Assembly: GCA_009774175.1 (NCBI GenBank)
Contig: VSNG01000002.1
Span: 11,095-75,094, forward strand
DNA: 64,000 bases
Source of the DNA: Lachnospiraceae bacterium
GTDB taxonomy: Bacteria; Bacillota; Clostridia; Lachnospirales; Lachnospiraceae
Direction of reading: 5' to 3'
Below are positions 1 through 44,575 of the stretch, piece by piece (position 1 is the first letter of the stretch; every line of letters starts with the position of its first letter). Under the pieces are notes generated by a model that worked only from the letters and a program-made list of their open reading frames with translations, was not told the DNA's origin and searched no databases. The position numbers were made by a program, and so were the translations under genes.

Positions 1-198
1 CGTTCCCAGCGCTCCCGCTGACTTCACATTGGTAAAATCATCATGGGAGTAAAACGTATACCACGCCGCAATGATAACCGGTATCAAAACAAACGCCGCC
101 GTACCAAGCAGCGATATCTCCGCAATCAACGCATATCCCCGATTGCTTTTACCCCCCCCCCTATTTAAATTGCCATTTTCTATTACCGTCTCCTGCAT
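1..198 (-). CDS. hypothetical membrane protein, N-terminal 66 codons only (continues beyond left edge)
   Basis: Hand translation of the minus strand from ATG 198..196 stays open to position 1: MQETVIENGNLNRGGGKSNRGYALIAEISLLGTAAFVLIPVIIAAWYTFYSHDDFTNVKSAGALGT. It has one hydrophobic helix after a basic tail. AAAGGA lies upstream of the ATG. It is absent from the ORF track, probably because the fragment runs off the window edge with no in-window stop. It contains an in-frame G10 tract. Confidence 0.45.
   Translation of the reverse strand, partial: MQETVIENGNLNRGGGKSNRGYALIAEISLLGTAAFVLIPVIIAAWYTFYSHDDFTNVKSAGALGT
152..161 (-). repeat. G10 homopolymer (C10 on plus strand) within codons 13-16 (RGGG) of the partial CDS; part of the 16-nt element AGGGGGGGGGGTAAAA (147..162)
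   Basis: Counted directly: a at 151, c at 152-161, t at 162. The same 16-mer recurs at 43189..43204. Confidence 0.9.
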
Positions 199-227
199 CC
201 TTTTATTCCTTTCTTTTCTTCACGTTC

Positions 228-2126
228 TCACCACAAATCTTCCACATACTCCTGATACCACATCTGGAACATCATAAATCCCCATAACACAGAACTGTAT
301 ACAGACTTGTCTGACACTTCCAATCTCTGTATGAACTCACTAATCTTCCCTGCTTCAAAAATACTCTGTTTCTTCAAAATGTGGGGATCTGCATATTGTC
401 TTAGCTGCTTGTTAAGATCATTCCTCAGCCAGAGCGCCACCGGAACTCCAAAACCTTGCTTGGGTCTGTCTAGCAGTTCTCTCGGTACAAGATCGTAAGC
501 AATGTCCTTTAGAATATACTTTTTCTTTCCGTTACGGTATTTATACTGCAAAGGAACCCGAAAACTATACTCCACAATTCGATAATCCAACAACGGACAT
601 CTGATCTCCAAGGAGTATTTCATGGATCCCCTGTCTGTCTTCACCAGCACTTCATCCGCCATATAGTACCGCATGTCAAGCAGCATTCGTTTTGTCTGCC
701 AATCATTTCCAAGCGACGTGATTTCATGTATTTTCTCTTCGAAGTCACGTTTTGCCGATTCAGACCCGCTAATTATCATATCCCGGGTATGCTTTTCCCG
801 GACGTCTGCAAACAACTGCAATTTTGTACGTTGATCCCTGTTATTCAAAAACGCATTCATTTTATCCGGCAGCCTGTCCACTAATGCCATATTCCGAAGC
901 AACGGCATATGACATACAGCGTGTCCTGCCTTTCCAAGCCACTCCAGCTTTTGCGCCCACAACATCCAGTCATACTGCTCATATCCGCAAAACAGTTCGT
1001 CCCCGCCGTCCCCTGACAATATGACGGATACATCCCCTTTTGCCAGTTTGGACACCAGCATGGTCGGTATCTGCGAAGAATCTGCGAAAGGTTCGTCATA
1101 CCACTTACAGATATCCTGAATCTGCTCCAGCAAATCCTGTTTAGATACATAAAGCTCCGTATGGTTTGTCCCGATATGCTTTGCAACGGCTTTGGCGTAT
1201 TCCGCCTCGTTCTCTTTTTGGGTAGAAAAGCCTATTGTATATGTCCTGATCGGTTCGACGGATGTTCTCTGTGCCAGCGCTGTGATCACCGTTGAATCAA
1301 TTCCTCCGCTCAGAAAAGTGCCCAGCGGAACGTCAGAAATCATTCTTTTTTCTACCGAATCCGATAATAAATTTACCAAACCATCTTTGGCGGCGGCGTA
1401 GTCCGTTATTTTCCGCCCGCTCTGTTTCTGATAGGTTTCCAGCAGATCCCAATAAAAATAGCTGTGCACATTATTCTTTTCCCATATCACGCATTCGCCC
1501 GGCTGCACCTTCCAAGTATGGCGAAACACGGTATCTGGCGAATCAAAGCATTTATTTACCAAATATCCAGAAATCAGCTCCGTTCTTATCTCCTTGCGGA
1601 ATTCGGGAAATGCCATAATCGGCTTCAATTCAGAAGCAAAAACAAATGCGCCTGTCTCAGGAGACCGATAATAATACAGCGGCTTTTTACCCATCCTGTC
1701 CCTGGCAAGCATCACCCGCCCCTGCCGCAAATCCGCAATCGCCAGGCCAAACATTCCGTTCAGCATGGTCAGGCAGTCAATGCCATACTCCAAATACAGA
1801 TTTAATATTACTTCCGTATCGCAGGCGGAACGAAACCGATACCCCTTTAGCTCCAGCTCTTCTCTTAACTCAATGTAATTATATACCTCTCCATTATACA
1901 CAAGAACCACCTGCCGGTCATCAGAAAACATGGGCTGATGGCCAGCAGAAGACAAATCCAGGATAGATAATCTCCTTTGTCCCAATCCCAGATAAAGCCC
2001 ATTCGACAACCCCGTCTGGTAGATTCCCGCATCGTCCGGTCCCCTATGAATCATGGTATTATTCATTTCCGTCAAAATCTCCGGTCTGTACTTTTGTCCG
2101 GATAGATAACCGCAGATGCCGCACAT
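228..2126 (-). CDS. asnB: asparagine synthase (glutamine-hydrolysing), glycan-locus AsnB/WbpS-type amidotransferase
   Basis: N-terminal MCGICG (Cys2 Ntn glutaminase nucleophile). PP-loop SGGIDS. 632 aa, typical length. ATG at 2126 preceded by GGGGAAAAG. Confidence 0.9.
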   Translation of the reverse strand: MCGICGYLSGQKYRPEILTEMNNTMIHRGPDDAGIYQTGLSNGLYLGLGQRRLSILDLSSAGHQPMFSDDRQVVLVYNGEVYNYIELREELELKGYRFRSACDTEVILNLYLEYGIDCLTMLNGMFGLAIADLRQGRVMLARDRMGKKPLYYYRSPETGAFVFASELKPIMAFPEFRKEIRTELISGYLVNKCFDSPDTVFRHTWKVQPGECVIWEKNNVHSYFYWDLLETYQKQSGRKITDYAAAKDGLVNLLSDSVEKRMISDVPLGTFLSGGIDSTVITALAQRTSVEPIRTYTIGFSTQKENEAEYAKAVAKHIGTNHTELYVSKQDLLEQIQDICKWYDEPFADSSQIPTMLVSKLAKGDVSVILSGDGGDELFCGYEQYDWMLWAQKLEWLGKAGHAVCHMPLLRNMALVDRLPDKMNAFLNNRDQRTKLQLFADVREKHTRDMIISGSESAKRDFEEKIHEITSLGNDWQTKRMLLDMRYYMADEVLVKTDRGSMKYSLEIRCPLLDYRIVEYSFRVPLQYKYRNGKKKYILKDIAYDLVPRELLDRPKQGFGVPVALWLRNDLNKQLRQYADPHILKKQSIFEAGKISEFIQRLEVSDKSVYSSVLWGFMMFQMWYQEYVEDLW

Positions 2127-2139
2127 TTTCTTTTCCCCG

Positions 2140-3342
2140 CTACTCGGATATAATTTCCAGCCACCTGTTCACAGATCCTTCAATCGTCAACATCTTTGCC
2201 CGCGAACTGGTCTTGTGTTTATAATAATCTCTTTTTTCAGAATCCTGCAATAATAATGTCATAGCCTTTACAAGCTCCTGCTCCGCCCGCTCCAAAGGCT
2301 CTTTTCCTCTGTATTTTTGTCCACTGCACAGGGGAACCAAAATTCCGTATTCAACCTCTGTCATTTCCTCGATTTGCACCGCACTGTCAGCTATATCCGG
2401 TGCCAGTATTTCCCTTGCGCCCGCATGGAAGTCCGTCGCTATACACGGAATCCCCAAGCAAACAGCCTCGGCCATTGCATTGGGAAATCCCTCATAGAGG
2501 GACGTCATGACAAACGCGTCTGCTTTGCTGACAAGCCGATAAAGATTTTTCGTAAAACCAGCAAAAAATACGCTATCCGCTATTTTGCAGTTTTTTGCAA
2601 GCTCTTTTAAAGATTCTTCCAGCTCGCCTTCTCCTGCGATAATCAGCATGGCGTCTCTTATCTGCTTTTGCGTTTCAGCAAATGCCCTGATTAAATGCTG
2701 ATATCCTTTGACATCCACAAGCCTTCCGGCTGTCACAATCACTTTTTTGTTTTGCATGCACATCTGTTCAGCATCCGTCAGCGGTTCTTCAGCCAGTTTG
2801 TTCAATCCGTTGATATCGTACCCGTTTTCAATAACAACAACCTTATCCTTTTTCAAAGAAAAGCTCTGTACCAATTCACTTCCAACGCCCTTTGATACGG
2901 CGACAATCCGATCCGCCCTATTATATAAAAGCCGTACCAGCGGAATGACCACATACTTATACTGCGGCAGCATACTCTGTCTTTGCAAACTGCTTCGGGC
3001 CGATATAATCACCTTACAATATTTATTTCCGGTTAATATATTGGCCACATTCGAGCTGTCCAGAAAGCTGACGCACGCTGCATATCCGTTATTTTTCTTT
3101 AACTGATACAGCATTTTCATTCTTTTGATCAATAAACGAAAATGGAAGAAAACTGATCCCATCCTTTCATTTTCAATATCCAGTGAAATCAGTCTGCCGC
3201 GATACGGATATGTCTCCGTTTTATCATTATTGAGCAGGATATCAATTTCCCAATCATTCGGTATGTGGGTAACCAGGTTCGACAATGCCCGCTCCGCTCC
3301 GCCGCCATATAAGTGCGATATAACAAAAAGAATTCTTTTCAT
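2140..3342 (-). CDS. glycosyltransferase family 4 (GT-B)
   Basis: ILFVISHLYGGGAERA N-terminus. C-terminal EGFPNAMAEAVCLGIPCIATD (E-x7-E type motif). Confidence 0.85.
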   Translation of the reverse strand: MKRILFVISHLYGGGAERALSNLVTHIPNDWEIDILLNNDKTETYPYRGRLISLDIENERMGSVFFHFRLLIKRMKMLYQLKKNNGYAACVSFLDSSNVANILTGNKYCKVIISARSSLQRQSMLPQYKYVVIPLVRLLYNRADRIVAVSKGVGSELVQSFSLKKDKVVVIENGYDINGLNKLAEEPLTDAEQMCMQNKKVIVTAGRLVDVKGYQHLIRAFAETQKQIRDAMLIIAGEGELEESLKELAKNCKIADSVFFAGFTKNLYRLVSKADAFVMTSLYEGFPNAMAEAVCLGIPCIATDFHAGAREILAPDIADSAVQIEEMTEVEYGILVPLCSGQKYRGKEPLERAEQELVKAMTLLLQDSEKRDYYKHKTSSRAKMLTIEGSVNRWLEIISE

Positions 3343-3348
3343 ATACGA

Positions 3349-4479
3349 TTATAAGTCCCTCTCGTCTACTTTTTGCAGTACATCCTCATACCGTCTGATA
3401 ATCTGCTCCCAGTCATACCGCGACACGTCCATGACGCAATCCAGCTCCGCAGGATCTTTTTCCATCACCTTTCCAAGCTTGTCCGCAAGCCCCTGCACAT
3501 CATCCGGCGCAAAATAGTATTGATCATCACCGATCAGCTGTCTGTGTCCCGGTATGTCCGAAAGAAGCGGATAGCATCCCGCCGCGGCCGTCTCAAGAAC
3601 TGCCATCGGACAGTTTTCAAAGTGACTCGCCGTAATATAGACAGACGCCTTTTGCAGGTAAGCAAGCTGCTCTTTACTGTTATTATCAATCCATCCGTGG
3701 AATCTCACGCAGTCCGCCAGTCCCAGCTCTGCCACTAATTGCTCCAGCTCTCCCCGATACGGTCCGTCCCCCAGAATATCTACCATCCATCCCGACCGGT
3801 CAACCGCCGCAACCGCACGGATCGCCGTCTGCATATTTTTATATTTCTGCATTCTCCCCATCAGAAGAATCCGCTTTTCTTTCTTATTTCGATCTGCAAT
3901 TTCACTGTATTTTTTTACATGAAGTCCGTTTGGTATCTGAATATAATTGCCTCCGTCATACTCCTTTTTCATAAGAGAAAGAAGATAATTTGACGGGGCG
4001 ATCACACCTTCCGACTCCTTTACAATTTTTCTCCAGGAAGGCCGCAAAAACCTGTGCATAATCTTCATGTACTTTTTGGAATTATATCCTTCCACGTCGC
4101 TTCCATGTGCCGTAATCACATAGGGAATCCCATATTTGTCCTTTACCCATTTGGCCGCTTCCCCCGTGGGTATCACGAAATGGGTATGGCAGACATCATA
4201 AGTATGGGATTTCATATGGCTCTTCATGAAATGTCTGACCGCCAGCAGATAGGAATATTGTTCCCACGGCATACAGGAGCTCTTTTTGCCGCGCAGACAC
4301 TTTAAACGATAAATTTTGACTCCCTGCTCCTCCTCATATGCCAAAAGACCATGGAATCCCATGGTCACTATCGTCACATCATGGCCCCGCTTCGCAAGCT
4401 GTATGGATATATCCCTGGATACCGGGGCCGCGCCGCCGCCAAGGGGCGGATATTCGTAATTCAACACCAATATTCTCAT
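3349..4479 (-). CDS. glycosyltransferase family 4 (GT-B)
   Basis: MRILVLNYEYPPLGGGAA N-terminus. FENCPMAVLETAAAGCYPLLSD near the C-terminus. Confidence 0.85.
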   Translation of the reverse strand: MRILVLNYEYPPLGGGAAPVSRDISIQLAKRGHDVTIVTMGFHGLLAYEEEQGVKIYRLKCLRGKKSSCMPWEQYSYLLAVRHFMKSHMKSHTYDVCHTHFVIPTGEAAKWVKDKYGIPYVITAHGSDVEGYNSKKYMKIMHRFLRPSWRKIVKESEGVIAPSNYLLSLMKKEYDGGNYIQIPNGLHVKKYSEIADRNKKEKRILLMGRMQKYKNMQTAIRAVAAVDRSGWMVDILGDGPYRGELEQLVAELGLADCVRFHGWIDNNSKEQLAYLQKASVYITASHFENCPMAVLETAAAGCYPLLSDIPGHRQLIGDDQYYFAPDDVQGLADKLGKVMEKDPAELDCVMDVSRYDWEQIIRRYEDVLQKVDERDL

Positions 4480-4509
4480 GTCTGTATCTGACCTTTCCCA
4501 AACGGTGTA

Positions 4510-5454
4510 TCACTGTTCCTCGGTATTCTCCACAACTTCCCTAATATTATAGGGCAAATCCACATGCGTCCCGTAATATACCTTCATCATGATCTCGCTC
4601 ATCAGTCCAAATACAAACATCAGAACGCCCATAATCATAAAAAACACTGTCAGGATTGGCGGAATAATATTATTTGACATTTTATAACCCATCACAAATA
4701 ATACAATCGACCAAATGCCGCATATTCCCCCTAACATACAGAATAAAATGCCAAAAGCGCCGAGAACGTGCAGCGGTCTGGAAGCATATTTATTCCAAAA
4801 CCAGACGGAAATCATATCCACAAATCCCTTAATGGTTCTGTGCCAGTTATATTTTGTCTTACCCGACGTCCTTGCTCGGTGATTGACCACCATCTCCCCG
4901 ACCTTAAACCCTTTAATCTCCAATATCGCCGGAATAAAGCGATGCTGTTCGCCATACAGATTTATTCCTTTAAAGCATTCCCTTCGGTACACTTTTAAAG
5001 AACAGCCGCTGTCATGGATACCGTCATGGACCAGCAGATATCTAAGCGCATTCGCACCGCGGGAAATAAACCGCTTCATGAATGTGTCCTTGCGATTCTT
5101 TCGCCAGCCGGAAACCACGTCGTAGTGATTCTCCCGCATGTATTCCAGCATTTTGGGAATATCCGCCGGATCGTTCTGCCCGTCGCCGTCCAGCGTAGCG
5201 ATAAACTCCTTTGTTGCCGCCTTAATCCCCGCGTCCATGGCCGCCGTCTGCCCGAAATTTCTACGGAACTGAATATATTTAAGCGGTTTCAGGGTACGGC
5301 AGATCTGATCCGTTTTGTCCGAGGAGCCGTCATTGATAAAAATAATCTCATAGTCGTATCCTGCGTTCACACACATCCGCTTAATTTCCTGATGCAGCTT
5401 TTCCACGTTTCCTTCTTCATTATAAACCGGTACTACAACTGATACTCCAAGCAT
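4510..5454 (-). CDS. GT2 polyprenyl-phosphate glycosyltransferase (GtrB/CsbB/ArnC-like) with C-terminal membrane helices
   Basis: VSVVVPVYNEEGNVEKL, INDGSSDKT, TLDGDGQNDP, then hydrophobic C-terminal helices. The track ORF begins at a TTG (5484). ATG at 5454 has AAGGTGG 8 nt upstream and avoids overlap with the upstream gene. Confidence 0.8.
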   Translation of the reverse strand: MLGVSVVVPVYNEEGNVEKLHQEIKRMCVNAGYDYEIIFINDGSSDKTDQICRTLKPLKYIQFRRNFGQTAAMDAGIKAATKEFIATLDGDGQNDPADIPKMLEYMRENHYDVVSGWRKNRKDTFMKRFISRGANALRYLLVHDGIHDSGCSLKVYRRECFKGINLYGEQHRFIPAILEIKGFKVGEMVVNHRARTSGKTKYNWHRTIKGFVDMISVWFWNKYASRPLHVLGAFGILFCMLGGICGIWSIVLFVMGYKMSNNIIPPILTVFFMIMGVLMFVFGLMSEIMMKVYYGTHVDLPYNIREVVENTEEQ

Positions 5455-5467
5455 TTTGTTTGCCACC

Positions 5468-6628
5468 TTATCTGTTATTTGCAAAATCCTGTTTGTTCTT
5501 CAATATTTCCTGATAAACAGCCCAAATTTGTTCACAATTATTCTTTACCGTGTATGTTTCCGACACTTTCCTCGCCTGACGCCCGATATTCTGCATCTCA
5601 TTCCTGTGATCAATACAGTATATCATTCTGTTAGCAAGCTCCTCAATATGATTGACTTCGTAAAGTAAATTCATAAATGATACCAGTTCCGGTGTGGCGC
5701 CGCTGCGCGCCCCGATAACCGGCATATAATTGGACATATATTCGACAGTAACCCGCCCAAAAGCCTCATTATTCGTAGCCATGATTCCCACGTCCATATG
5801 CTCCAGAACAGACCCCACATCCGATTGATATCCCGTAAAACAGATATACGGATTCAACTGCGCTTCCTTTATATAATTTAGTATCTTATGATAATAATCC
5901 CCCTGCGTCGGCCCGATGATTGTCAGGGAAAAATCAGTGTATCCCCTTGAAACTAAAACCTTACACGCTTTGACGGCATCCATCTGATTTTTTTGCTCAT
6001 ATATCATTCCCACCATGCAAAAATGGACGATTCCACCTTCGCAATATTTTTTTACATAGGGTGGTCTGATTTCTACGCCGTCATATATCTGAATATTATT
6101 GATTTTTAGCGAATAACCTTCTATTCTTTTTGCCAATGCCTCGGAAATCGTAATTATCTGAGACGATTGCAGTAATTTTTGGGTAAACTCCCTTTTTCCC
6201 CATACATATTCCAGAGGATACCCGTCCTTTAAAATTTCGCGAAAATGCCAGACATGGGGAACACCCCATTTTTTTGCCAGAAACAGGCCAATATCCGTTA
6301 TACTTGTATTGGTATGCACCAAATCAAACGTCAGGCCCTGTCTGTCAATCATATCCAAAACGGCATAAAATTCTTTATACCGCATGATTTTTCTTGTCAG
6401 TTTTCTAAAAGGCTTGTATTTTATGTTTTCATCAACAGCGCTGATTCTGAAAGTATGAAAAATAAATTTAATCCCATAGGGCTTTAATTTCGCTTCAATC
6501 GTGCCGCCGGACGGAACAAGTATATATGGTTCCACATTATGGTATCGCTGCATATATAGCGACATTTCACACAGGCAATGATTCGCGCCTCCCATGGTGT
6601 CGTAATTTGTTATATATAAAACTTTCAT
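5468..6628 (-). CDS. glycosyltransferase family 4 (GT-B)
   Basis: MKVLYITNYDTMGGANH. NEAFGRVTVEYMSNYMPVIGARSGATPE. AGGAG before ATG 6628. Confidence 0.8.
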   Translation of the reverse strand: MKVLYITNYDTMGGANHCLCEMSLYMQRYHNVEPYILVPSGGTIEAKLKPYGIKFIFHTFRISAVDENIKYKPFRKLTRKIMRYKEFYAVLDMIDRQGLTFDLVHTNTSITDIGLFLAKKWGVPHVWHFREILKDGYPLEYVWGKREFTQKLLQSSQIITISEALAKRIEGYSLKINNIQIYDGVEIRPPYVKKYCEGGIVHFCMVGMIYEQKNQMDAVKACKVLVSRGYTDFSLTIIGPTQGDYYHKILNYIKEAQLNPYICFTGYQSDVGSVLEHMDVGIMATNNEAFGRVTVEYMSNYMPVIGARSGATPELVSFMNLLYEVNHIEELANRMIYCIDHRNEMQNIGRQARKVSETYTVKNNCEQIWAVYQEILKNKQDFANNR

Positions 6629-6713
6629 ATATCTCCTGCGCAGCTTCCTTTCTTTCTGATCCCCTTAGCCCTGGCAAGCCTGGATATCAGATATCAGAAA
6701 AATCCAAAGGCAA

Positions 6714-8207
6714 TTAATTTATATAAAACAAATAAGCCCTTCTCTCATACTCGCTATACGAATATCTTTCCAATAAAGTCGCGAGAAAATCTTCGTCAAT
6801 TTCGTTCAACTGAAAATCGCTGTGCGTACCTATCATCAACGCATAAGGTTCTTCCGTTCCCTCCAGATAACGCAGCAGTGCGGACAAATCTTCCTCCGTA
6901 TACCCGTTAGAAGCATTATCACTGTCACTCAATGCAAGCAAATACTCAGCGTCTAACGGAAACGCCGCTGCCTCATGCTCGTCTGACCATATGCAGATAC
7001 ACTTTCTTCCATCGTCTATGGCCGTCTGCGTTTCTTCAACCAGCCCACCATAATTGTTAAAATTCGTTTCATTCCAAAGATAGGGCACCCGGATATATTC
7101 TTTTATATTTATTTCCGCCTCTGGTTTCAGAACCGCAAATAAAGAAAATAGCAATATTATACATTTACAGAATGTATGCGCCGCTAACAGGTCAAAGCCC
7201 AAAACGGCGGCAAAAACAAATACCGGCAGATAAGGCGCATATACCCGCATGGGAAAACAATCGAAATACAGTGCGTTAAAGGCAAGAAACGGTATGACGC
7301 CAAGGCAGTAAATCCCTATCACATTATCCGCATAGTCATTTCTGCGCTTTACCAGATAATAACCATATATAATCACGCCTGCCACAAGACCGATTCCACC
7401 ATAATAAAAGTTTCTGCTAAAATAAGCATGTCCCCAATAGGGGCCATATATGTTTAACATCCTGTCCACAAATTTCGGAAGCGGTGATGAAAGGATACCC
7501 ATTCGATTAACAACCAATATTGCTTCCAGCAGCACAAGCAGGCTCAAGCCTGTCCATACAACTGTGCGGATGTATTTCGCTTTCTTCAATTGTACGGCAT
7601 ATTTTTTTAATATAGCGTTTAACACGAAAGCCAATAATGCAAATAATGTCAGACCAACCGCTATCAAATACCCTGATTGCATGATGGTCAGACTAAACGC
7701 AAATAAAATATACAGTATACCAAACCCGATCCTTTTTATCTGCTGTCCCTGCTGCTGCATTTTATAAAGCAGAAAAACCAGAACCGACCATACGGCCTCA
7801 TCCCAAATATATTCGCGTATATAGAGATGATTATAAATAATAACGCCATGAAAGCTGATGATAAAAGTAAATATCACTATGCTGTACGTATGCGTTACCA
7901 CATGATACAGTACATAAAGCAGTGCCCCAAAGCTGATGCCGCTTAAAACAAACGGAATTAGCTTATAAACGTAATAAGATTTCCCAATGTATTCGCTCAG
8001 CCAACGAATGATATCGTTAATATAAACAGCTCTGTCATACAAAGATATTTTGTAAAACTCTGCATTGGAAGAGGAAATATGATAGGTTTCATCAAAAGCA
8101 TACCACCCTTCATAATGGGCGATCAAAATAATCCGCCAGATAACAAAGAAGAAATAGCAGCCAAATGCCATTGTTTTTTTATTTGTCAAATATTTTCCTC
8201 TTATCAA
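6714..8207 (-). CDS. polytopic membrane protein, GT-C-like (ArnT/PMT-like) with soluble C-terminal domain
   Basis: About 10 or more hydrophobic segments. FDETYH (acidic DE) sits in the first predicted loop, as in GT-C enzymes. Acidic soluble tail of about 130 aa. TTG start at 8207 has GGAAGGG 6 nt upstream; the alternative ATG at 8171 lacks an RBS. Confidence 0.5.
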   Translation of the reverse strand: MIRGKYLTNKKTMAFGCYFFFVIWRIILIAHYEGWYAFDETYHISSSNAEFYKISLYDRAVYINDIIRWLSEYIGKSYYVYKLIPFVLSGISFGALLYVLYHVVTHTYSIVIFTFIISFHGVIIYNHLYIREYIWDEAVWSVLVFLLYKMQQQGQQIKRIGFGILYILFAFSLTIMQSGYLIAVGLTLFALLAFVLNAILKKYAVQLKKAKYIRTVVWTGLSLLVLLEAILVVNRMGILSSPLPKFVDRMLNIYGPYWGHAYFSRNFYYGGIGLVAGVIIYGYYLVKRRNDYADNVIGIYCLGVIPFLAFNALYFDCFPMRVYAPYLPVFVFAAVLGFDLLAAHTFCKCIILLFSLFAVLKPEAEINIKEYIRVPYLWNETNFNNYGGLVEETQTAIDDGRKCICIWSDEHEAAAFPLDAEYLLALSDSDNASNGYTEEDLSALLRYLEGTEEPYALMIGTHSDFQLNEIDEDFLATLLERYSYSEYERRAYLFYIN

Positions 8208-9972
8208 CTAAATGTGCCCTTCCGTCTTTTATTTCAAATATTTTATCACATTTTCTAATTGTTGCCAACCGATGGGCAACTATAATCATCGTCTTGATAC
8301 CCTGCAAGGCGTCAATCGCCTCCATAACCGCCTGCTCTGTTTCTGAATCCAGTGCAGAAGTCGCCTCATCCAGTACCAGAATATCCGGGTTATAATATAG
8401 AGCGCGCGCAATGGCTATTCGCTGTCTCTGTCCTCCTGAGAACTTAACGCCCCGCTCACCCACTACCGTATCCAGTCCCCTTTCACAATTTTCCACCATC
8501 GTTTTGATCTGCGCCTGATCCAGCGCCCGCCAGATCAACTGATCGTCAATCTCCTCTTCCGGCAGGCCAAACGCGATATTATTTCGAATGGTATCGTCAA
8601 GAAGAAACACCGACTGCGGCACATATCCGATCACCTTTGCCCACTGCGGCAGAATGGTAAAAATGTCCTTTTCATCTATTTTTATGCATCCTTCCTGGGG
8701 CTGCAAAAGCCCCAGCATAATATCCGCCAGAGTCGTTTTACCGGCGCCGGATTCCCCGATTAACGCTACGGATTCCCCCTTCCGTATTTCCAGAGACAAG
8801 TCCTCTATCACCCAGGGAAGTTTTTCTCCATATCTCCATTTGACATGTTCTACTGACAGCCCTTCGCGAAAGCTTATCATGCTCTGATCTTTACTTTTTT
8901 CAACATTCTCCCACAGCGCCGCGTTTCGTTCATCTTCCTGTTTTGCGCTCATGATATTCTGATATGCCTCATCCAGCGCCAGCCTGTTAAAAACCAGGGA
9001 ATTCATATAATTTGCAAGATTTGAAATGGATGGTAAAAGCCTGACCGCCGCTATTGCCATTGTCCCCAGACTGGAAATATAGTCGGTGGATACTCCCCCG
9101 CTTTTCACATTGAAACAGACCAGCAGCAGCATACTTCCCACAAAAATGGTCTCTGTCAACCGATTAGGAACTTTTTGAATACATAAATAGGTCGTATTAT
9201 ATTGGCAGGCCTTTTCAGATGCGCGCGCAAACTGACTGACAAAATTGTCTCTTCGCTGCATCACCGTTATCTCTTTTACACCGTTAACGGATTGATAGGC
9301 GCACTGCTGTCTCTCCGAAAAAGCTTCCCTTGTTTTTTTCCCGCACTCCCCTATCTTCTTTTTAAATCCCACTACCATTCCCATTGCGAACAATACGGTC
9401 ACGCCCATCAGGGAAAAGGCAAGGAAGGGATTGAGGAAAACGAGAAATATGCCAATAAAGAAACATGTCAGCCCTTCCGCCAGCAATCCCGAATAACCAT
9501 CCAACACAAGCGCAATCCCGGTAGTATCATTAATGACGCCTCTTAAAATATCCGCGCTGTTTGTATCCAGAAAAAAAGTATACGGCCGCTTCATGTAGGA
9601 AGCCAGAAGTTTAATTGACAAATCTTTCTCCAGTTTATTCCGAAAGTCCGCCTGATAATAATTTGCAAGTAAAATCATGGCATTCTTAACAACATAGACT
9701 CCAATAATGCCTATGGCTACCAGAAGCAGTATATTATCGTAATCATCTAAATGCAGGAAGCCTGCAACGCTTACAATATATTTATTATTTAACAGTAATT
9801 CCGGCTCCAGCATGGCAATAATAAAGGGAATTACCACACTGATTCCCAGCATTTCCAAGATGGAAACAAAAATCAAAAGAATGATCAGAATAACCCCTTT
9901 TATCTTTTGCTTGCTGGTCAAAATCCCCAGCAGCTGCTTATACATTGTGAAAAAAGTCCGTATATTCTTCAT
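8179..9972 (-). CDS. ABC transporter, fused permease/ATP-binding half-transporter (MsbA/PglK type exporter)
   Basis: N-terminal multi-helix domain. Walker A GESGAGKTT, signature FSGGQRQR, Walker B LVLDEATSALD. Confidence 0.9.
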   Translation of the reverse strand: MKNIRTFFTMYKQLLGILTSKQKIKGVILIILLIFVSILEMLGISVVIPFIIAMLEPELLLNNKYIVSVAGFLHLDDYDNILLLVAIGIIGVYVVKNAMILLANYYQADFRNKLEKDLSIKLLASYMKRPYTFFLDTNSADILRGVINDTTGIALVLDGYSGLLAEGLTCFFIGIFLVFLNPFLAFSLMGVTVLFAMGMVVGFKKKIGECGKKTREAFSERQQCAYQSVNGVKEITVMQRRDNFVSQFARASEKACQYNTTYLCIQKVPNRLTETIFVGSMLLLVCFNVKSGGVSTDYISSLGTMAIAAVRLLPSISNLANYMNSLVFNRLALDEAYQNIMSAKQEDERNAALWENVEKSKDQSMISFREGLSVEHVKWRYGEKLPWVIEDLSLEIRKGESVALIGESGAGKTTLADIMLGLLQPQEGCIKIDEKDIFTILPQWAKVIGYVPQSVFLLDDTIRNNIAFGLPEEEIDDQLIWRALDQAQIKTMVENCERGLDTVVGERGVKFSGGQRQRIAIARALYYNPDILVLDEATSALDSETEQAVMEAIDALQGIKTMIIVAHRLATIRKCDKIFEIKDGRAHLVDKRKIFDK

Positions 9973-10022
9973 TTTTGCTCCTTAACGCTCCTGTAACCCC
10001 TGAATACCTCCTACTGATTTCA

Positions 10023-11057
10023 TTACCAATAGCAGGCCTGTTCCACCTGATTTGCACCGGCTACTCGTTCCGATTCCAGCGGTCTTGTCCAGTATTCATT
10101 TACCACATTCCTGCAAAATTCTGCATTTTCATCTTCCCAGCGTCGTCCCAGTATCCCAAACATCAGCTGGGTTGCGCCGCCCAGATGAATGGCGGTCTTT
10201 CCCATCCTTTTGATCTCGGCCGCCAACGGAAACCCATACGCGCCGCAGCCGATAATGGCTACGTCAAAATCTGACTTCCTGCATTGGTCAACCATCCAGG
10301 TAAGCGCCTCAAACCATGTGGAAAATCTGCCGTCCCGCTCTCCCGCAATTGTCTGTACCGCTTTCAATGTATTCAGCTCAAATTCCGGCAGAATATCTTC
10401 CGCATCGTATATACGCTCAAAGATATGCACTCTGTTTTTCTCATACTGGCTTCTGATGGATTCTTCGAAAGGATGCACCACCAGCACCTTCTTTCCTTTC
10501 AATGCATAACTCCACGGCTTGATATTACTACGGGGATATTGATACATATTCCACGGCTCCAGGCGCGAAAGCTGTGTCAGTCTGGTATGGGGCTGATATT
10601 TCACATAGATATAGTCCTCCATATATCTTCCCCATTCGCCCAATAAATCTATATGCGCGCATGATTCCAGCATTAAATCGCTAAATTTTTCCCCCAGACT
10701 CATGTTGTATGGGAAAAAACCGGCATTCGTACATAATTGCCTTAACGCCGCTTCCCGCCCATCCTTTTCCGGATGCATCCGATGTAACAGCGTCTGATAA
10801 ACCATCTTCAACTCGGTATCTCCAAACCGACCGGCCCAAAAGGGCGCGCCGTCCGTAATGGCCCGGCCAATTATTTCGTTGGCCTTCGGCGTTGAAAGCA
10901 GCCACCGTCCGGCCACCATGCGGGGCATGGGCCAGCGCAGCCTGCCGGTAAGCTTCTCATAAATCTGGCTTCTGCGAAAACAAATGTATTCTGATATATA
11001 ATTATATTTATCGAAAAACTCCCAGCACAACCTGTCATCCATGTAACACATCCTCAT
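10023..11057 (-). CDS. hypothetical protein, possible GT-D-fold (DUF1792-like) glycosyltransferase
   Basis: RFGDTELK resembles the RFGDGE motif recalled for DUF1792. VLVVHPFEESI and IIGCGAYGFPLAAEIKRMGKTAIHLGG give a Rossmann-like layout. ATGA overlap with the upstream gene at 11054..11057. Family assignment is from memory only. Confidence 0.4.
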   Translation of the reverse strand: MRMCYMDDRLCWEFFDKYNYISEYICFRRSQIYEKLTGRLRWPMPRMVAGRWLLSTPKANEIIGRAITDGAPFWAGRFGDTELKMVYQTLLHRMHPEKDGREAALRQLCTNAGFFPYNMSLGEKFSDLMLESCAHIDLLGEWGRYMEDYIYVKYQPHTRLTQLSRLEPWNMYQYPRSNIKPWSYALKGKKVLVVHPFEESIRSQYEKNRVHIFERIYDAEDILPEFELNTLKAVQTIAGERDGRFSTWFEALTWMVDQCRKSDFDVAIIGCGAYGFPLAAEIKRMGKTAIHLGGATQLMFGILGRRWEDENAEFCRNVVNEYWTRPLESERVAGANQVEQACYW

Positions 11058-12247
11058 TGCAGTACGTCATTCTTCCCCGAAACGCTCCTGTAAATATCCA
11101 GATACTTTCTGCTTATCTTCTCCATATCAAACTTCTCTACCGCATAAGCCCTGATGGCATCGCTCTGGTATTCCCGAAAATGTGTCATCATTTCCCGAAT
11201 CCCCCGATACAGGGCCTCCTCGTCTTCCCTCTCCACCAGTACCCCTGTCTCCTTCGTCACAAAGGACTCCGGCCCGCCGCTCTTTGTGGAAACCACGGGT
11301 TTCCCCAGCATCATCGCCTCCGCGATGGTACAGCCGAAAGACTCAAACTTACTGGCGGACACAAGAAAATCCATCTGGGAAAGAATCTCATACAATTTCT
11401 TTTTATCCGCTTTTCCGTGGAAAATGCAGTTCTCCCCCACGCCAAGCCGCGCGGCCGTCTGTTCAAACTCCTGTCGGAACGCCCCGTCTCCCACAATATG
11501 CAGTGTAAACCGCATCCCTTCCCGCTTTATTCGGGAAGCTACGGAAAGCAGCATGGGAATCCCTTTGATTTCCCGGTCATACAGGCTTGCTGCCAGCGCG
11601 AAGTTCACACAGCCGGCCATCCGATATGACACAGGCCCAGCCGCCTCATCCTGATAAACCTCGTTCTTCTCCGCTTCTGACGAACGCTGCTCAATCAAAA
11701 CGGCCGGCTCCTTTGGCACGATAATGCCATTATAAACCGTATGGAAACGGTACTTTGGAAAAATCGCCGACAGCTTCTTCGTCAGATCTTCCGACACGCA
11801 GGCATTATATCTGCTGTTTCTGTATACAAAATCCGCATACTGATGCAGCGGGAAATGCAGCACGCCCGACGCCTCGATGGTGGAGTGCTCCGTCACCATC
11901 ACGGGAATATGAAAGATTTTCCCCAAAATAATGGCAAACCGTCCCACCTCCGTAGCCACCTGGGCATGAATAATGTCCGGGTGAAAAGATTTTACAATCC
12001 GTCTCATGGTACGAAACATATACATCCTGTTTCTGATCTTATTCTGCAGCTTATAGGGCGAGCGCCAGACTCGCATCCCCTGCTCCATTCCCTCCTCAAT
12101 CTGCTTCACCTGTCTGTCATAGGGATAATAGATCATGATATTACAGTATTTACTCAGGGACATCGCCTGCTCATAATGAAAATTTCCGGCATGATCCGCG
12201 CCGTCTTTTGGCAGATACCAGCTTACCATCATTAATACGTTCAGCAT
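11054..12247 (-). CDS. glycosyltransferase family 4 (GT-B)
   Basis: FESFGCTIAEAMMLGKPVVSTKSGGPESFV. Size and layout are typical. Confidence 0.85.
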   Translation of the reverse strand: MLNVLMMVSWYLPKDGADHAGNFHYEQAMSLSKYCNIMIYYPYDRQVKQIEEGMEQGMRVWRSPYKLQNKIRNRMYMFRTMRRIVKSFHPDIIHAQVATEVGRFAIILGKIFHIPVMVTEHSTIEASGVLHFPLHQYADFVYRNSRYNACVSEDLTKKLSAIFPKYRFHTVYNGIIVPKEPAVLIEQRSSEAEKNEVYQDEAAGPVSYRMAGCVNFALAASLYDREIKGIPMLLSVASRIKREGMRFTLHIVGDGAFRQEFEQTAARLGVGENCIFHGKADKKKLYEILSQMDFLVSASKFESFGCTIAEAMMLGKPVVSTKSGGPESFVTKETGVLVEREDEEALYRGIREMMTHFREYQSDAIRAYAVEKFDMEKISRKYLDIYRSVSGKNDVLQ

Positions 12248-12259
12248 GTACGGCTCCTT

Positions 12260-13207
12260 TTATCTGCTTTTCAATTTTTCAAACACAGATTTATTCACGT
12301 CAAGTCCCAGCATGGACTTGATCTTTACAATCAGCCCGTGGCGGTTTGCCGCCTTAAAATACCCCCTGTCAAAGGCCTCGTCCCACTGCACCTTCTCCCG
12401 ATGGCGGATGGGAAACCGCACTGGCCGCACCTCCTGTTTCATCCACTTGGGCGCCCGGAAGGTATGCGTCGCTTCTTCACTGAATCCAATATTAAACACA
12501 TGGCTCTCGCGGGGCGCAATATTCAGCTTATCATGTAAAATACCTGCATACATAAGCTGATAATCCCATGTATCAAATTCATGGCGGTACAGGGATTCGT
12601 ATTCCGCCATATAAACCCAGTATGCCTTTGTTGGCAGCACCCGCTTAAATACAGACGACTTTCGGTTTTCAGGAAGGGTCTTTAAATCATAATCATACAG
12701 CTTCCAGGCCCGCCGCCAGGAAGCCCAGCCCCAGATAAAGGGCACTTTGGAAAACAGATAATCCTCGTCGCCGTGATAACAGCTTGCATAGGGATTGTTC
12801 CCGCTGATCATCATAATCCGTTCATCATCCTTATAATACTCCAGCATTTCCTGACAGTAGCGGAAAAAGGTGGGATCGGGCACACAGTCATCCTCCAGTA
12901 TGATAGCCTGTTCCTCCTGCTCGAACACCCAGCTTAAGCCGCTGGAAATCCTTCTGCCGCAGCCCATATTATCCTGTGCATAATTTTTATGCACTTCACA
13001 GTCCCAGTCGATATGTTCTTCGATATAGCTCCGAACCGCGTCCACTTTTTCCTTTTCGCCCGGCACATGGCCTCTGGCCGCGTCGGCTACAATATATAAT
13101 TTCGGCGGCTTTGCTTCTCTGATCCTCTCAAAAACCTGTTTTGTGGTATCCAGACTCTTAAATACGCAAAAAGCAACCGCTGTCGTTAAAACAAAATTCT
13201 CCTGCAT
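12260..13207 (-). CDS. GT-A fold glycosyltransferase (GNT-I-like / HlpA-like family)
   Basis: DNMGCGRRISSGLSWVF and IILEDDCVPDPTFF (EDD motif). ATG at 13207 is preceded by GGGAGA and follows the stop of the upstream gene (13230). The 60 extra N-terminal codons in the track overlap that gene and are rejected. Confidence 0.6.
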   Translation of the reverse strand: MQENFVLTTAVAFCVFKSLDTTKQVFERIREAKPPKLYIVADAARGHVPGEKEKVDAVRSYIEEHIDWDCEVHKNYAQDNMGCGRRISSGLSWVFEQEEQAIILEDDCVPDPTFFRYCQEMLEYYKDDERIMMISGNNPYASCYHGDEDYLFSKVPFIWGWASWRRAWKLYDYDLKTLPENRKSSVFKRVLPTKAYWVYMAEYESLYRHEFDTWDYQLMYAGILHDKLNIAPRESHVFNIGFSEEATHTFRAPKWMKQEVRPVRFPIRHREKVQWDEAFDRGYFKAANRHGLIVKIKSMLGLDVNKSVFEKLKSR

Positions 13208-13229
13208 GTTTTTTCTCCCTCGCCATGAT

Positions 13230-15281
13230 TCACTCAAAACTGATCCTGTAAACCTTCCATCCCCTGTATGCATATTCCTGCTCTTCCAGCACATGGAAAC
13301 GCTGTCTGATCTCCTCCGCCAGCCCTTCTCCCGCACAGGGAAGATAGCAGTAGTTTTTCCTGCCTTCAAAATCTTTTGCCACCACATCCCAATCCGGCTC
13401 TTCGGCCAGCTGACAGGCCGTATAGATCTGCACGCCGTCTTCGAACACAGCCTCGCGCCTGCCCCTGTCAGGATTCCAATACTCCTGCTGCCGGTAATAC
13501 GCTCCGGTAACCGCCCCTACCTCGGCCATCCCGTCAAAATAATAGGTGTTCCCGCCCAAAGACGGAAAGAAAACGGTATCGCTCCCTGCAAGGGAATCCG
13601 CCAATGCCGCCCCCAGCGCATGTTCCAGCCAGAGCATCTGTCTGTTATAAATCATGCCGTCCCCCAGCGGATTGGTATCGGTCGTAATCATGACCGTACT
13701 CCCGGCGGAATATTGAGGAAAGCTCAGCCGCGTCACCGGATCAACGGTACAAAAGGAAGACACCGCCATCAAAACGGCCACACACCCTGCAAGAATCTGT
13801 CCATACAGATGTTCCAGCGCATAGGCCGAAAGCACAATTGCCATGCACATAAGCGCCGGCTGATTTGTTCCATTATAGCGCGGGTGATTTACCGTCTTAA
13901 AAATACAGCTAAAAGCCGTAAAGGCAAGCTGTCCGCACAAAATCGGGAAAAGTCTTTGCCAAACGCCCCTTTCCTTTCTGAGGATACAGACAGCGGCGCC
14001 GCCTACACAAAAAACCGTAAACAGCCAGTTAAACTGTAAAATATATAAAGCCTTTAGCTTCTCAAACACATAAGCGCCGTCTATATGAAGGCCTCCCACA
14101 CCGGCGCTCCAAGGCCCCAGAATCTTGTAAGTGGCAAGCCACAGAATACCCGGCAGAGTCATGGCATAATACCGTTTTGTCCGAAACATCCTTCCGACCC
14201 GCGTCCAGAAAGGCGCACCTGACTGATCAGTAAAATCCAGGACAACAAGGCTTACGCATGTCGTTGCGTAAATCAGAACGGCAGGTTCCTTGGTAAAACA
14301 AAACAGCATGGAAGCAATGAAAAAGTAAATCCACTGCCTCCGATACAAAAAGCACAGCATAATCACAAAAAAACAAAGACAGTAAAAGTCCAGACTGTGA
14401 TAGTATACCATGCCCAGCGTAAAAGGCGACCATGCATATACTGCCGCCGCAAGCGCATACACAAAATCCTGTTTCCCCGGCAGCATACACTTTATCATAC
14501 CATAAAAGGCGCATACACTGCAAAGAAACAGGATGATATTCATGCCAATCATTGCCGCCGCCGTATCCCCCGCAAGTATACGTCCCAGACAGTTCAACAT
14601 GCCATAGGTCTGCGCAATATGCCCGTAAGGAGCAAGGGAGCTGATGGAATCCGCCGCCCCTTCCCGACAGGCAAGATAATATAAAAGCCCGTCCCACTTA
14701 AACTGCACGGCGTCCGGCTCGATCAAAAGCAGGGCCGTCACTGCCAGCAAAAAAAGCAGCCACCGATGAGAGCCCGCCGCTCCCATGACGCGTTCCTTCC
14801 ATCCCCCCGACAGGAGCCCCTTTCCGCTGTCTTCATCTGTCAGAAGCTTTCCGCGCCGGTCTGTCGAAACCAACCGACTTTTTTCATCACCCGGCAAAGA
14901 CTGCCTGAACCGCCCCAAAAGTAGAAAACATCCTGCAAAATTGGCAAACCACAGAATATTCAGACAAAGCTTGCCATATTCTCCCTGTAAAAACAACGCG
15001 CCGCCGCCTCTTAAAAAAAGCAACAGGCAAAGAACCGCGCCCAGGCCTGATATCACCATAAGCTGCCTGCGAAAATCTTTTCCTGCAAGCACAAGGACAG
15101 AATAACAAAACAGCGTATAGAAAAGCATCGTCAGCAGTGAAAAAAGGAATCCGGCCTCACCAAAGGCGCCGCTTTTGTGATGAACCGTCAGTAATCCCCA
15201 CGCAAAATACCCGACAAGAACCGTCCCAATCCCCATCATTAATGAAACAATGCCCATTTGCTGTTTCATCCGTTTTATCAT
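13230..15281 (-). CDS. large polytopic membrane protein, GT-C-like, with soluble C-terminal domain
   Basis: 683 aa with many hydrophobic segments. Acidic/aromatic loop FKWDGLLYY. Non-hydrophobic tail of about 150 aa. GGGAGA before ATG 15281. Confidence 0.5.
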   Translation of the reverse strand: MIKRMKQQMGIVSLMMGIGTVLVGYFAWGLLTVHHKSGAFGEAGFLFSLLTMLFYTLFCYSVLVLAGKDFRRQLMVISGLGAVLCLLLFLRGGGALFLQGEYGKLCLNILWFANFAGCFLLLGRFRQSLPGDEKSRLVSTDRRGKLLTDEDSGKGLLSGGWKERVMGAAGSHRWLLFLLAVTALLLIEPDAVQFKWDGLLYYLACREGAADSISSLAPYGHIAQTYGMLNCLGRILAGDTAAAMIGMNIILFLCSVCAFYGMIKCMLPGKQDFVYALAAAVYAWSPFTLGMVYYHSLDFYCLCFFVIMLCFLYRRQWIYFFIASMLFCFTKEPAVLIYATTCVSLVVLDFTDQSGAPFWTRVGRMFRTKRYYAMTLPGILWLATYKILGPWSAGVGGLHIDGAYVFEKLKALYILQFNWLFTVFCVGGAAVCILRKERGVWQRLFPILCGQLAFTAFSCIFKTVNHPRYNGTNQPALMCMAIVLSAYALEHLYGQILAGCVAVLMAVSSFCTVDPVTRLSFPQYSAGSTVMITTDTNPLGDGMIYNRQMLWLEHALGAALADSLAGSDTVFFPSLGGNTYYFDGMAEVGAVTGAYYRQQEYWNPDRGRREAVFEDGVQIYTACQLAEEPDWDVVAKDFEGRKNYCYLPCAGEGLAEEIRQRFHVLEEQEYAYRGWKVYRISFE

Positions 15282-22098: not shown

Positions 22099-23091
22099 TT
22101 AAACATTATATATATCGCTCTTATAGCATCCCATATTCTCTCTGATCCAGGCAATCGTCTCCCTGATTCCCTCCTCGAACGTATATCGGGGTTCCCATGC
22201 GGTCAGTCTTTTGATCTTCTCGTTTGCGCCCAGCAGACGGTTTACCTCGCTCTTTTCCGGGCGAAGTCTCTGCTCATCGCAGACGATCTTCGCACTCGGA
22301 TTGATCTGCCTGATGATCTCATTTGCCAAATCCCCGATGGAAATCTCCTGCTGGGTCGCAATATTGATTTCCTCTCCGATGGTCTTGTCCGATTCCGCAA
22401 TCGACACAAACCCTGCCGCCGTGTCCTTCACATAATTAAAGTCTCTGGTGGGCGAAAGCGATCCCAGCTTAATCTCTTTTTGTCCCGCCAGAAGCTGGGT
22501 AATAATCGTGGGAATCACGGCCCTTGCCGACTGTCTCGGGCCGTATGTATTAAACGGCCTGACAATCGAAACCGGTAAATTAAAGCTTCTGTAAAAGCTC
22601 TCCGCCAGCCGATCCGCTCCTATTTTAGTGGCGGAATAGGGGGACTGACCCTGATAAGGATGTTTTTCGTCAATAGGCACATACTGCGCCGTGCCGTACA
22701 CCTCCGAGGTGGACGTGACCATAATCCGCTCTGTTCCCAGATCACGCGCGGCCTGCAGCACGTTTAAGGTGCCCTTGATATTCGTATCCACATAGGAATC
22801 GGGCGAATGGTAGCTGAACGGAATAGCGATTAATGCCGCCAGATGGAATACGCCGTCCACGCCCTTCATCGCTTCCCGCACCCCGTTGGGATCACGGATA
22901 TCCCCCGAAAACACTTCAATTTCCCTCATTTTATCCTGCGGCAGCGTATCCAGCCACCCCCAGGTATTAAAGGAGTTATAATAAGCAAACGCCTTTACCT
23001 GATATCCCTTTTCTACCAGCAGTTCGGTCAGATGACTTCCGATAAAGCCGTCCGCTCCTGTCACCAACACTTTTTTCATAATGCTCCTCAT
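22099..23091 (-). CDS. legB: NAD-dependent sugar-nucleotide 4,6-dehydratase, LegB-like (SDR family)
   Basis: VLVTGADGFIGSHL Rossmann motif, STSEVYG, YSATK (YxxxK). The FAYYNSFNTWGWLD segment is as recalled for LegB-type enzymes. ATGA overlap with neuC at 23088..23091. Sits in a NeuC/NeuB/NeuD context. Confidence 0.7.
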   Translation of the reverse strand: MRSIMKKVLVTGADGFIGSHLTELLVEKGYQVKAFAYYNSFNTWGWLDTLPQDKMREIEVFSGDIRDPNGVREAMKGVDGVFHLAALIAIPFSYHSPDSYVDTNIKGTLNVLQAARDLGTERIMVTSTSEVYGTAQYVPIDEKHPYQGQSPYSATKIGADRLAESFYRSFNLPVSIVRPFNTYGPRQSARAVIPTIITQLLAGQKEIKLGSLSPTRDFNYVKDTAAGFVSIAESDKTIGEEINIATQQEISIGDLANEIIRQINPSAKIVCDEQRLRPEKSEVNRLLGANEKIKRLTAWEPRYTFEEGIRETIAWIRENMGCYKSDIYNV

Positions 23092-24269: not shown

Positions 24270-24271
24270 TT

Positions 24272-25270: not shown

Positions 25271-25902
25271 AACTGCTTTACCTTTTCCCCGCTCCATGCG
25301 ATGCTGTGCGCTTTCACATCACGGCGGATGGTGGTTCCCGCTCCGATCGTGCTTTTATCCCCGATGGTTGTGCACTGGACAACCGTTGCATTGGCCCCCA
25401 CCAGCACGGATCTGCCCACCTTTACCTCCCCGCACAAAACCGTTCCCACCGATATATGGGAAAAATCTCCTACCTGACAGTCATGCTCCACAATCGCGCC
25501 CGTGTTGATAATACACATATCCCCTATCACTGCGTTTACATTGATAACGGCTCTCTTGCCGATAAAACTGCCCTCTCCGATTCGTGCGCCGGCAGAAAGA
25601 ATCGCGGAAGGGTCGCAGACTATCGGAAGCCGGAAACCGATCTGCTTTAAGGTACCAAAGAGCTTTTCCCTGACATCCGACTTCCCCATATAGCCGATTC
25701 CCACAGCGGCGTTTCGGATGCCGCTTTGAAAAAGCCGCTCCAGATCCTTATCGCCGCCAAGCACCGGATAGCGGCTTCCCTCTTTTGCGCATACCGCGTC
25801 ATTGACCACATAACCCGCTATCTCATATTCCTGTTGTCTCTCCAGAACGTCCGCAAGACTTTCCGCGTGTCCGCCCATGCCGAGAATAATTATCTTTTCC
25901 AT
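25267..25902 (-). CDS. NeuD/PglD/LegH-family sugar N-acetyltransferase (left-handed beta-helix)
   Basis: IIILGMGGHAESLADVL N-terminal Rossmann-like part. Hexapeptide repeats IGEGSFIGKRAVINVNAVIGDMCIINTGAIVEHDCQVGDFSHISVG. Confidence 0.85.
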   Translation of the reverse strand: MEKIIILGMGGHAESLADVLERQQEYEIAGYVVNDAVCAKEGSRYPVLGGDKDLERLFQSGIRNAAVGIGYMGKSDVREKLFGTLKQIGFRLPIVCDPSAILSAGARIGEGSFIGKRAVINVNAVIGDMCIINTGAIVEHDCQVGDFSHISVGTVLCGEVKVGRSVLVGANATVVQCTTIGDKSTIGAGTTIRRDVKAHSIAWSGEKVKQL

Positions 25903-44544: not shown

Positions 44545-44575
44545 CTTATTTTCCTCCTCCTTAACGTGCATGTTT

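Follow-up and report, generated by a model that had tools for sequence, protein, structure and literature searches.

A poly-G tract as a probable phase-variation switch in a glycosyltransferase gene of a Lachnospiraceae bacterium

A run of ten guanines (G10) near the start of a membrane glycosyltransferase gene of a Lachnospiraceae bacterium is very probably a phase-variation switch operating by slipped-strand mispairing, that is, a contingency locus, and one of at least four in the same locus. The tract, termed site 1, lies at the left end of the 64-kb stretch of DNA that was analysed, referred to below as the window. A second G10 tract in the window, in a gene of the YfhO family, is termed site 2. 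Sites 3 and 4 lie beyond the left edge of the window and were read on public contigs, which are designated L001 onwards.

Gene content of the locus

The window consists of one co-directional string of about 45 genes, and the whole glycan locus exceeds 75 kb. It contains the genes of a nonulosonic-acid pathway (NeuB, a PglD-like acetyltransferase, a 2-epimerase, a 4,6-dehydratase and a CMP-sugar cytidylyltransferase), together with many GT2 and GT4 glycosyltransferases, two ABC exporters, an MBOAT protein, aminotransferases and methyltransferases. These families and their context point to surface-glycan tailoring as the probable function. Identical proteins in NCBI (MCI9064485.1 and MFG6335098.1) come from Lachnospiraceae bacterium MAGs. 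The exact 574-aa product of the site-1 gene is found on 803 contigs, indicating that the organism is common in public metagenomes.

The nonulosonic-acid genes are located on the minus strand at 22099..25902 (4,6-dehydratase, Epimerase_2, NeuB, PglD-like) and at 43864..44649 (CMP-sugar cytidylyltransferase, beside the YfhO-family gene). The pathway looks complete, and the set recalls the flagellin and capsule glycan loci of Campylobacter. Two tandem CotH-kinase-like proteins (PF08757) are also encoded within the glycan locus, on the minus strand at 57917..59806 and 59830..61773. Two further minus-strand ORFs of 375 and 683 residues, at 12260..13387 and 13230..15281, overlap by 158 nt, and neither matches Pfam; they could be one frameshifted gene or a true overlap. 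Among strains that are 97–99% identical, colinearity breaks at about 49196..49202, when the window is compared with L009, L010 and L011. Near this point, L009 has HisH/HisF-like amidotransferase genes and L011 a 126-aa ORF instead, which indicates that the locus also varies by cassette exchange.

Long G runs in the window

The features of the window on which the analysis is centred are the following, all on the minus strand.

1..198, minus strand: 5' end (66 codons) of the terminal gene, which in full encodes 574 aa and belongs to PF19528 (DUF6056 / GT_STM0557_N)
127..140, minus strand: candidate internal restart of the site-1 gene, taken from gene calls, with GGGGA (140..136) and then TTG six nt on (129..127, codon 24)
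147..162, minus strand: 16-mer AGGGGGGGGGGTAAAA of site 1, located by the window search
149..151, minus strand: TAA directly 3' of the site-1 tract, which stops the frame at G8/G11 (one of the two OFF phases)
152..161, minus strand: site-1 poly-G tract (G10 on the coding strand), encoding part of R13-G14-G15-G16, ON at G7/G10/G13
228..2126, minus strand: asparagine-synthase-like amidotransferase gene of the same gene string, next to the terminal gene on its upstream side
41182..43807, minus strand: YfhO-family (PF09586) gene split by a tract, with its start at 43807 (MESER...) or 43780 (MKIESK...)
43194..43203, minus strand: site-2 poly-G tract (G10) in the YfhO-family gene, OFF here, ON at G9/G12

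A first-pass annotation of this DNA had reported the same 16-mer, AGGGGGGGGGGTAAAA, at 147..162 and at 43189..43204, in a region otherwise free of long G/C runs where the next longest would be 6 nt, and had considered two G10 tracts with the same flanks to be unlikely by chance. These observations were all confirmed. The window has exactly two occurrences of the 16-mer, each on the minus strand, and no further copy was found in it even when up to two mismatches were allowed. In dinucleotide-preserving shuffles, 0.06 matches were expected, and two matches were not obtained in any of the 100 shuffles. The only G/C homopolymers of at least 7 nt in the 64 kb are those at 152..161 and 43194..43203, which read as C10 on the plus strand, and the homopolymer census found five C6 runs as the next longest. 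There are no other tandem or simple repeats of note in the window. The identity between the site-1 and site-2 copies stops at 16 nt.

The site-1 gene

The minus-strand ATG at 198..196 opens a frame that runs off the window (MQETVIENGNLN-RGGGK-SNRGYALIAEISLLGTAAFVLIPVIIAAW). The protein begins M-Q-E-T-V-I-E-N-G-N-L-N-R-G-G-G-K. As previously annotated, the tract is in frame (ON) 12 codons past this ATG; it starts at codon 13. A 79%-identical orthologue conserves the residues that precede the tract (MQEPILNDGNLNRGG), which supports ATG 198 as the true start.

The remainder of the gene was recovered with the amidotransferase gene at 228..2126 as an exact-match key, which retrieved public contigs reaching past the window edge. 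One of them, L001, is 100% identical to window positions 1..12126. Exact-match look-ups with two other window ORFs, 43864..44649 and 62935..63984, gave no match, as the called starts probably differ. The partial ORF, which had been taken to be a membrane-protein gene in a glycan locus, does continue past the window edge and encodes a 574-aa protein of family PF19528. It matches the profile with 56.6 bits (gathering score 27) over positions 9–441 of 442, and precomputed PF19528 matches are present on all of its close homologues. NCBIfam has no model for the protein, and a sequence search against the PDB returned nothing meaningful. The family now takes its name from STM0557, the gtrC gene of the gtr LT2_I O-antigen modification cluster of Salmonella Typhimurium (PMC2909390).

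An AlphaFold2 model computed from an alignment of 23 homologues has a pLDDT of 87 and a pTM of 0.86. Its only disordered segment comprises residues 1–17, including the glycines encoded by the tract, and is followed by TM1 (17–46). The pair D53-D54, just after TM1, is invariant in the alignment and would lie in the first extracytoplasmic loop. When the model was compared with the PDB using Foldseek, the best nine matches were all oligosaccharyltransferase (STT3) entries. EmbA/B, DPY19, PimE and Pmt1/2, which are among the lower matches, are likewise all GT-C enzymes. The Foldseek probability was 1.0 for the top ten matches and lower for the rest, with TM-scores of only 0.34–0.40. It is concluded that the product of the terminal gene is a GT-C membrane glycosyltransferase of the GtrC kind. 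From its fold, the enzyme would be expected to use a lipid-phosphate-sugar donor. A GT2 gene follows directly after the terminal gene (L001:13665..14705).

Products of the site-1 gene were simulated for other tract lengths. Peptides of 23 aa, 15 aa and 16 aa were obtained with G9, G8 and G11, respectively. The OFF products span only 15–24 aa because the tract is at the 5' end of the gene. When site 1 is out of frame, gene callers start at TTG codon 24 or at GTG codon 27, giving N-truncated proteins of 551 aa (P0042) and 548 aa (P0032) on about 30 contigs among the matches listed. The TTG codon is part of a GGGGA-N6-TTG arrangement located 21 nt past the tract. The OFF state of site 1 may therefore be leaky, with an N-truncated protein produced from the putative TTG or GTG restart.

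The site-2 gene and the tracts beyond the window

The YfhO gene is split into an N-terminal part of 208–232 aa and a C-terminal frame of 630 aa. The 232-aa ORF matches PF09586 positions 16–163 (51 bits) and the 630-aa ORF positions 213–833 of 835 (194 bits). As these are consecutive parts of the same profile, a single YfhO gene is split by the tract. With G10, as in the window, the frame stops 12 codons past the tract and the gene is OFF. With G9 or G12, it would encode 889 or 890 aa from GTG 43852, or 865 or 866 aa from the called start. The 630-codon frame past the tract is fully open. The peptide R-G-G-G-K had been read in both genes. This is correct for site 1, where it is in frame; at site 2, RGGGK belongs to the OFF frame, and the productive reading at G9 is R-G-G-V-K. 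The C-terminal similarity of the site-2 protein to PgfM1/M2 is weak.

Two more tracts were found past the left edge of the window. Site 3 (L001:15297..15306, AG10TAAAC), 3.3 kb past the edge, lies in a GT1-family (PF00534) gene that is split at G10 into 216 + 185 aa and is ON at G9/G12. Site 4 (L007:21329..21338, TG10TAATT), about 11 kb past the edge, lies in a split Acyl_transf_3 gene. It was read in L007, a 99.2%-identical strain, and is OFF at G10 and ON at G9/G12. In simulations at all sites, each tract is a poly-G on the coding strand with exactly one productive phase in three. It had been suggested that two tracts could give up to four combinatorial states. The tracts do vary and can combine, but their number was underestimated: with at least four switches in the locus, there are 16 possible states.

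Variation of tract length between assemblies

The lengths G9, G10 and G11 were read in DNA, and G8 and G12 are implied by product sequences; all tract alleles are assembly consensus calls. Tract length is thus not invariant across samples, as the first-pass annotation had anticipated for a switch. At site 1, L004 (G9) differs from L001, L002 and the window (G10) by one gap and no mismatch over 5,966 to 7,414 nt. At site 2, two contigs from the same project, L009 (G10, YfhO of 208+630 aa) and L010 (G9, 865 aa), differ by one gap and two mismatches over 20,673 nt. In all, site 1 is G9 in L004, L030–32, L034 and L035, and G11 in L029, L033 and L036; contigs that carry P0032 have G9 in five places and G11 in three.

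The in-frame 574-aa product of site 1 is found on about 1,230 contigs versus about 30 with N-truncated products, among the matches listed for 15 of 99 cluster members. For site 2, with 15 of 202 cluster members listed, the products correspond to G8 on 4 contigs and to G9 on at least 26; G10 is implied for at least 867 contigs and G12, as an 866-aa RGGGV product, for 6. The occurrence of both shorter and longer alleles, and of two ON lengths (G9 and G12), indicates repeated steps in both directions. Scans of JGI metagenomes with variable-gap patterns for sites 1 and 2 gave no matches.

On contigs where site 1 is OFF, the site-3 products are of 394, 395, 216 or 202 aa. Contigs L030 and L034, which come from the same study, measure 60,524 and 60,523 bp, and their site-3 products imply G12 (ON) and G11 (OFF), respectively. 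The switches assort independently.

Several contigs break at tracts (L002, L003, L005, L011, L015–L017, and L016/L019). L017:1..88 (GCA_043557505.1, JAIAZF010000120.1) and L019:1..5 are poly-C-rich contig heads (CCCCCTCCCCCCCCCCGCCCCCC...CCCCAAAAACTCTCG) that run into the site-2 tract, abutting window position 43192. This junk resembles a sequencing-chemistry artefact that has passed into a public assembly. It indicates that some of the contig breaks at tracts are technical, and that G10 hampers sequencing and corrupts short-read assemblies. Contig breaks were considered in this analysis as a sign of heterogeneity within samples; this use was rejected as unsafe given the poly-C heads of L017 and L019.

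The modal length at all four sites in this species is G10, whether this is ON (site 1) or OFF (sites 2–4). This suggests that G10 is either a mutational equilibrium length or the favoured default glycoform. As the mode is the same regardless of frame, it may reflect mutational equilibrium and not selection on phenotype.

The dominance of G10 at every site, whatever the frame, would also fit a role of the tracts in expression. By RNA-polymerase slippage or ribosomal frameshifting on the G run, out-of-frame alleles would still yield full-length protein, and tract length would tune dosage and not turn the genes ON and OFF. At site 1, restart at codon 24 or 27 could have a like effect. The GGGGA-N6-TTG arrangement past the site-1 tract, which is used by gene callers, goes in the same direction. 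However, none of the results obtained for this organism speaks for slippage on G runs, the variation observed at the DNA level is sufficient by itself, and recoding would add to a DNA switch and not replace it. Recoding as the explanation is therefore considered unlikely.

Conservation of the tracts in related genomes

Tracts at orthologous positions are kept in L027 and L028, where the DUF6056 protein is 79% identical, and in L025 and L026 (69%). Their lengths range from G9 to G11, and the gene calls are intact or split accordingly, as in two genes of L025 and L026:

GT1 glycosyltransferase: G10 in L025, 378 aa, intact; G11 in L026, 203+182 aa, split
TylF-like methyltransferase: G9 in L025, 330 aa, intact; G10 in L026, 277+97 aa, split

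The tract in the TylF-like gene is an extra one in these relatives, and L027 has another, in a pyruvyl-transferase gene. The RGGGK peptide is absent from a 64%-identical homologue; it is the DNA tract that is conserved, not the protein motif. When GTDB representative genomes were scanned with the 574-aa protein, the only relative found was a 35%-identical one from a Lachnobacterium MAG (L008), where G/C runs of at least 7 nt are absent.

Past its tract, the GT1 gene has an omega of 0.14 at a dS of 0.60 in a comparison of two strains with this gene OFF in each, and the DUF6056 gene has an omega of 0.29. These low values indicate working genes that are toggled, not decaying pseudogenes. The YfhO sequences of the window and L009 are identical, which makes dN/dS uninformative.

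Static polymorphism or gene decay would predict frameshifts fixed in each strain, that is, pseudogenes without reversible switching. In this sense, YfhO is OFF (G10) on at least 867 contigs versus about 32 where it is ON among the matches listed, and GT1 is OFF in most of the loci seen. Against decay, the tract is the sole difference between otherwise identical contigs, alleles are both shorter and longer with two distinct ON lengths (G9, G12), the 630-codon YfhO frame is open, GT1 is under purifying constraint past its tract (omega 0.14), and the tracts are maintained across species instead of being eroded. Static polymorphism or decay is thus considered very unlikely.

Homopolymer error in sequencing or assembly could also create the pattern, if each tract had one true, fixed length and the split genes were artefacts. 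The contigs that often end at tracts and the poly-C junk at the site-2 break of L017 and L019 show that the tracts are difficult templates. Nevertheless, consensus alleles from G8 to G12, including the two-step G12, recur over many independent studies and assemblers. Tracts are found at orthologous codons in relatives with 69–79% protein identity. In the DNA covered, all of it from the glycan locus, the tracts are confined to genes for glycan tailoring, it is invariably the coding strand that carries the G run, and one length in three yields a full-length, conserved protein. It is highly improbable that errors account for these regularities.

Sequence following the tracts

The dinucleotide TA immediately follows the tract at six of six independent sites, and TAA at four of the six:

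149..151 of the window, minus strand: after the site-1 tract
43191..43193 of the window, minus strand: after the site-2 tract
L001:15307: after the site-3 tract
L007:21339: after the site-4 tract
L025:19587: after a tract of a related genome
L027:19356: after a tract of a related genome

Ordinary G runs of 4–9 nt on the same coding strand (n = 283) are followed by TA in 3.2% of cases and by TAA in 0.7%. The strong preference for TA 3' of the tracts is real. A role of the stop codon would account for TAA, not for TAT or TAC. Other tracts of the clade have the flanks T-G10-TAATT, C-G9-TATTT, A-G10-TACAA and C-G9-CATAAA.

A shared origin of the identical flanks had been envisaged. That the 16-mers descend from a single ancestral element, whether by duplication, by mobile insertion or as a recombination site, has hardly any likelihood: two sites separated by 43 kb agree in all 16 bases and a third tract in 15 of them, but no similarity is seen outside the 16-mer, the host genes belong to unrelated families (PF19528, PF09586, PF00534), other tracts of the clade are flanked differently, and no repeats or mobile-element features surround the tracts. 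Shared ancestry is unsupported given the unrelated host families, the lack of extended homology and the flanks of the other clade tracts.

Discussion

The proposed mechanism of the site-1 switch is the following. The gain or loss of one G during replication would put the ribosome out of frame in the site-1 gene. With G9, a 23-aa peptide would be made, and with G8 or G11 translation would end at the TAA directly past the tract, so that one decoration of the surface glycan would be off or strongly reduced. The lengths G7, G10 and G13 would restore the frame, and one glycine more or fewer in the disordered cytoplasmic tail should be harmless. The same device would act on the genes for YfhO, the GT1 glycosyltransferase and the Acyl_transf_3 acyltransferase of the locus. 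With independent toggling, a clonal population would become a mixture of up to 16 surface glycoforms. Switching is presumed to be rapid and reversible within a lineage, the decorated target to be a wall or capsular polysaccharide, and the benefit to be escape from phage, antibody or other glycan-directed pressure. All three proposals draw on analogy with the systems of Campylobacter, Neisseria and Salmonella.

Slipped-strand phase variation is a classic process; what is new is the host and the gene families. The switched GT-C enzymes (DUF6056/GtrC-like and YfhO) are, to our knowledge, not part of the phase-variable set of Campylobacter. YfhO-family proteins act in teichoic-acid glycosylation in Bacillus and Listeria, and as PgfM1/M2 in Streptococcus mutans. 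We know of no report that the Bacillus and Listeria YfhO enzymes or PgfM1/M2 are phase-variable. The site-2 gene resembles these glycosyltransferases as a member of PF09586 (194 bits).

The closest parallel is with the poly-G contingency genes of Campylobacter jejuni, which are found in its loci for capsule, LOS and flagellin glycosylation, Cj1295 being one of them (PMC3068675). Both systems have G runs of about 8–12 nt in coding sequence, several per surface-glycan locus, nonulosonic acids, and independent, frame-dependent ON and OFF states that would combine into different glycoforms. The host here is a Gram-positive-type Lachnospiraceae commensal, in contrast to a pathogen of the Campylobacterota. 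In addition, the G(n)-TA flank bias is strong here, unlike in C. jejuni.

The gtrABC operons of Salmonella and phage P22, which glucosylate the O-antigen, are also phase-variable, with STM0557 as GtrC (PMC2909390, PMC3688519). They share with the site-1 gene a homologous membrane GT-C family and, as proposed here, the addition of a side branch onto a surface polysaccharide and phase variation. In Salmonella (PMC2909390), the switch is in the promoter and depends on Dam methylation and OxyR, and is therefore epigenetic, whereas homopolymer slippage in the coding sequence would be involved here. GtrC enzymes act in three-component systems, together with the flippase GtrA and GtrB, which synthesises the polyprenyl-phosphate sugar. 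Unlike in Salmonella, no gtrA or gtrB partner was identified beside the terminal gene.

In Bifidobacterium breve, replication slippage in poly-G switches sortase-dependent pili (PMC9187656). This is also a Gram-positive gut commensal with a poly-G ON/OFF slippage switch for a surface structure. In B. breve, which belongs to another phylum (Actinomycetota), single switches control pili, whereas here a battery of at least four in one locus would control glycan tailoring. In the literature on poly-G phase variation in Lachnospiraceae, in other commensal Clostridia and in the wall glycans of Firmicutes, no direct precedent was found.

A wider proposal can be made only tentatively, and we consider it somewhat less probable than its opposite. 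A prevalent uncultured lineage of Lachnospiraceae may maintain a conserved set of poly-G switches, four to six or more in number, on the tailoring enzymes of one giant surface glycan that contains nonulosonic acid, so that each clone would have at least 16 glycoforms. No multi-switch glycan system of the Campylobacter style would have been described before in commensal Clostridia, and the selected G(n)-TA/TAA grammar might be an unrecognised determinant of slippage or of the handling of the OFF state.

The finding is of moderate interest, mainly for microbiome biology and for the way in which genomes are annotated and assembled. Annotation routinely records switch genes of this kind as pseudogenes or fragments; for YfhO, the 208-aa fragment by itself is present on more than 860 contigs. 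As metagenomic reads give the tract length directly, existing time series could be used to follow the ON and OFF states.

For pathogens, phase variation of surface glycans is a central means of evading antibodies and phages. Among gut commensals, invertible promoters, as in Bacteroides, are the main mechanism known, beside the poly-G pilus switch of Bifidobacterium. If the proposed switching is true, commensal Clostridia would also keep a heritable and stochastic heterogeneity of their glycans, which would bear on IgA coating, on the host range of phages, on how strains persist and on how metagenomes are read.
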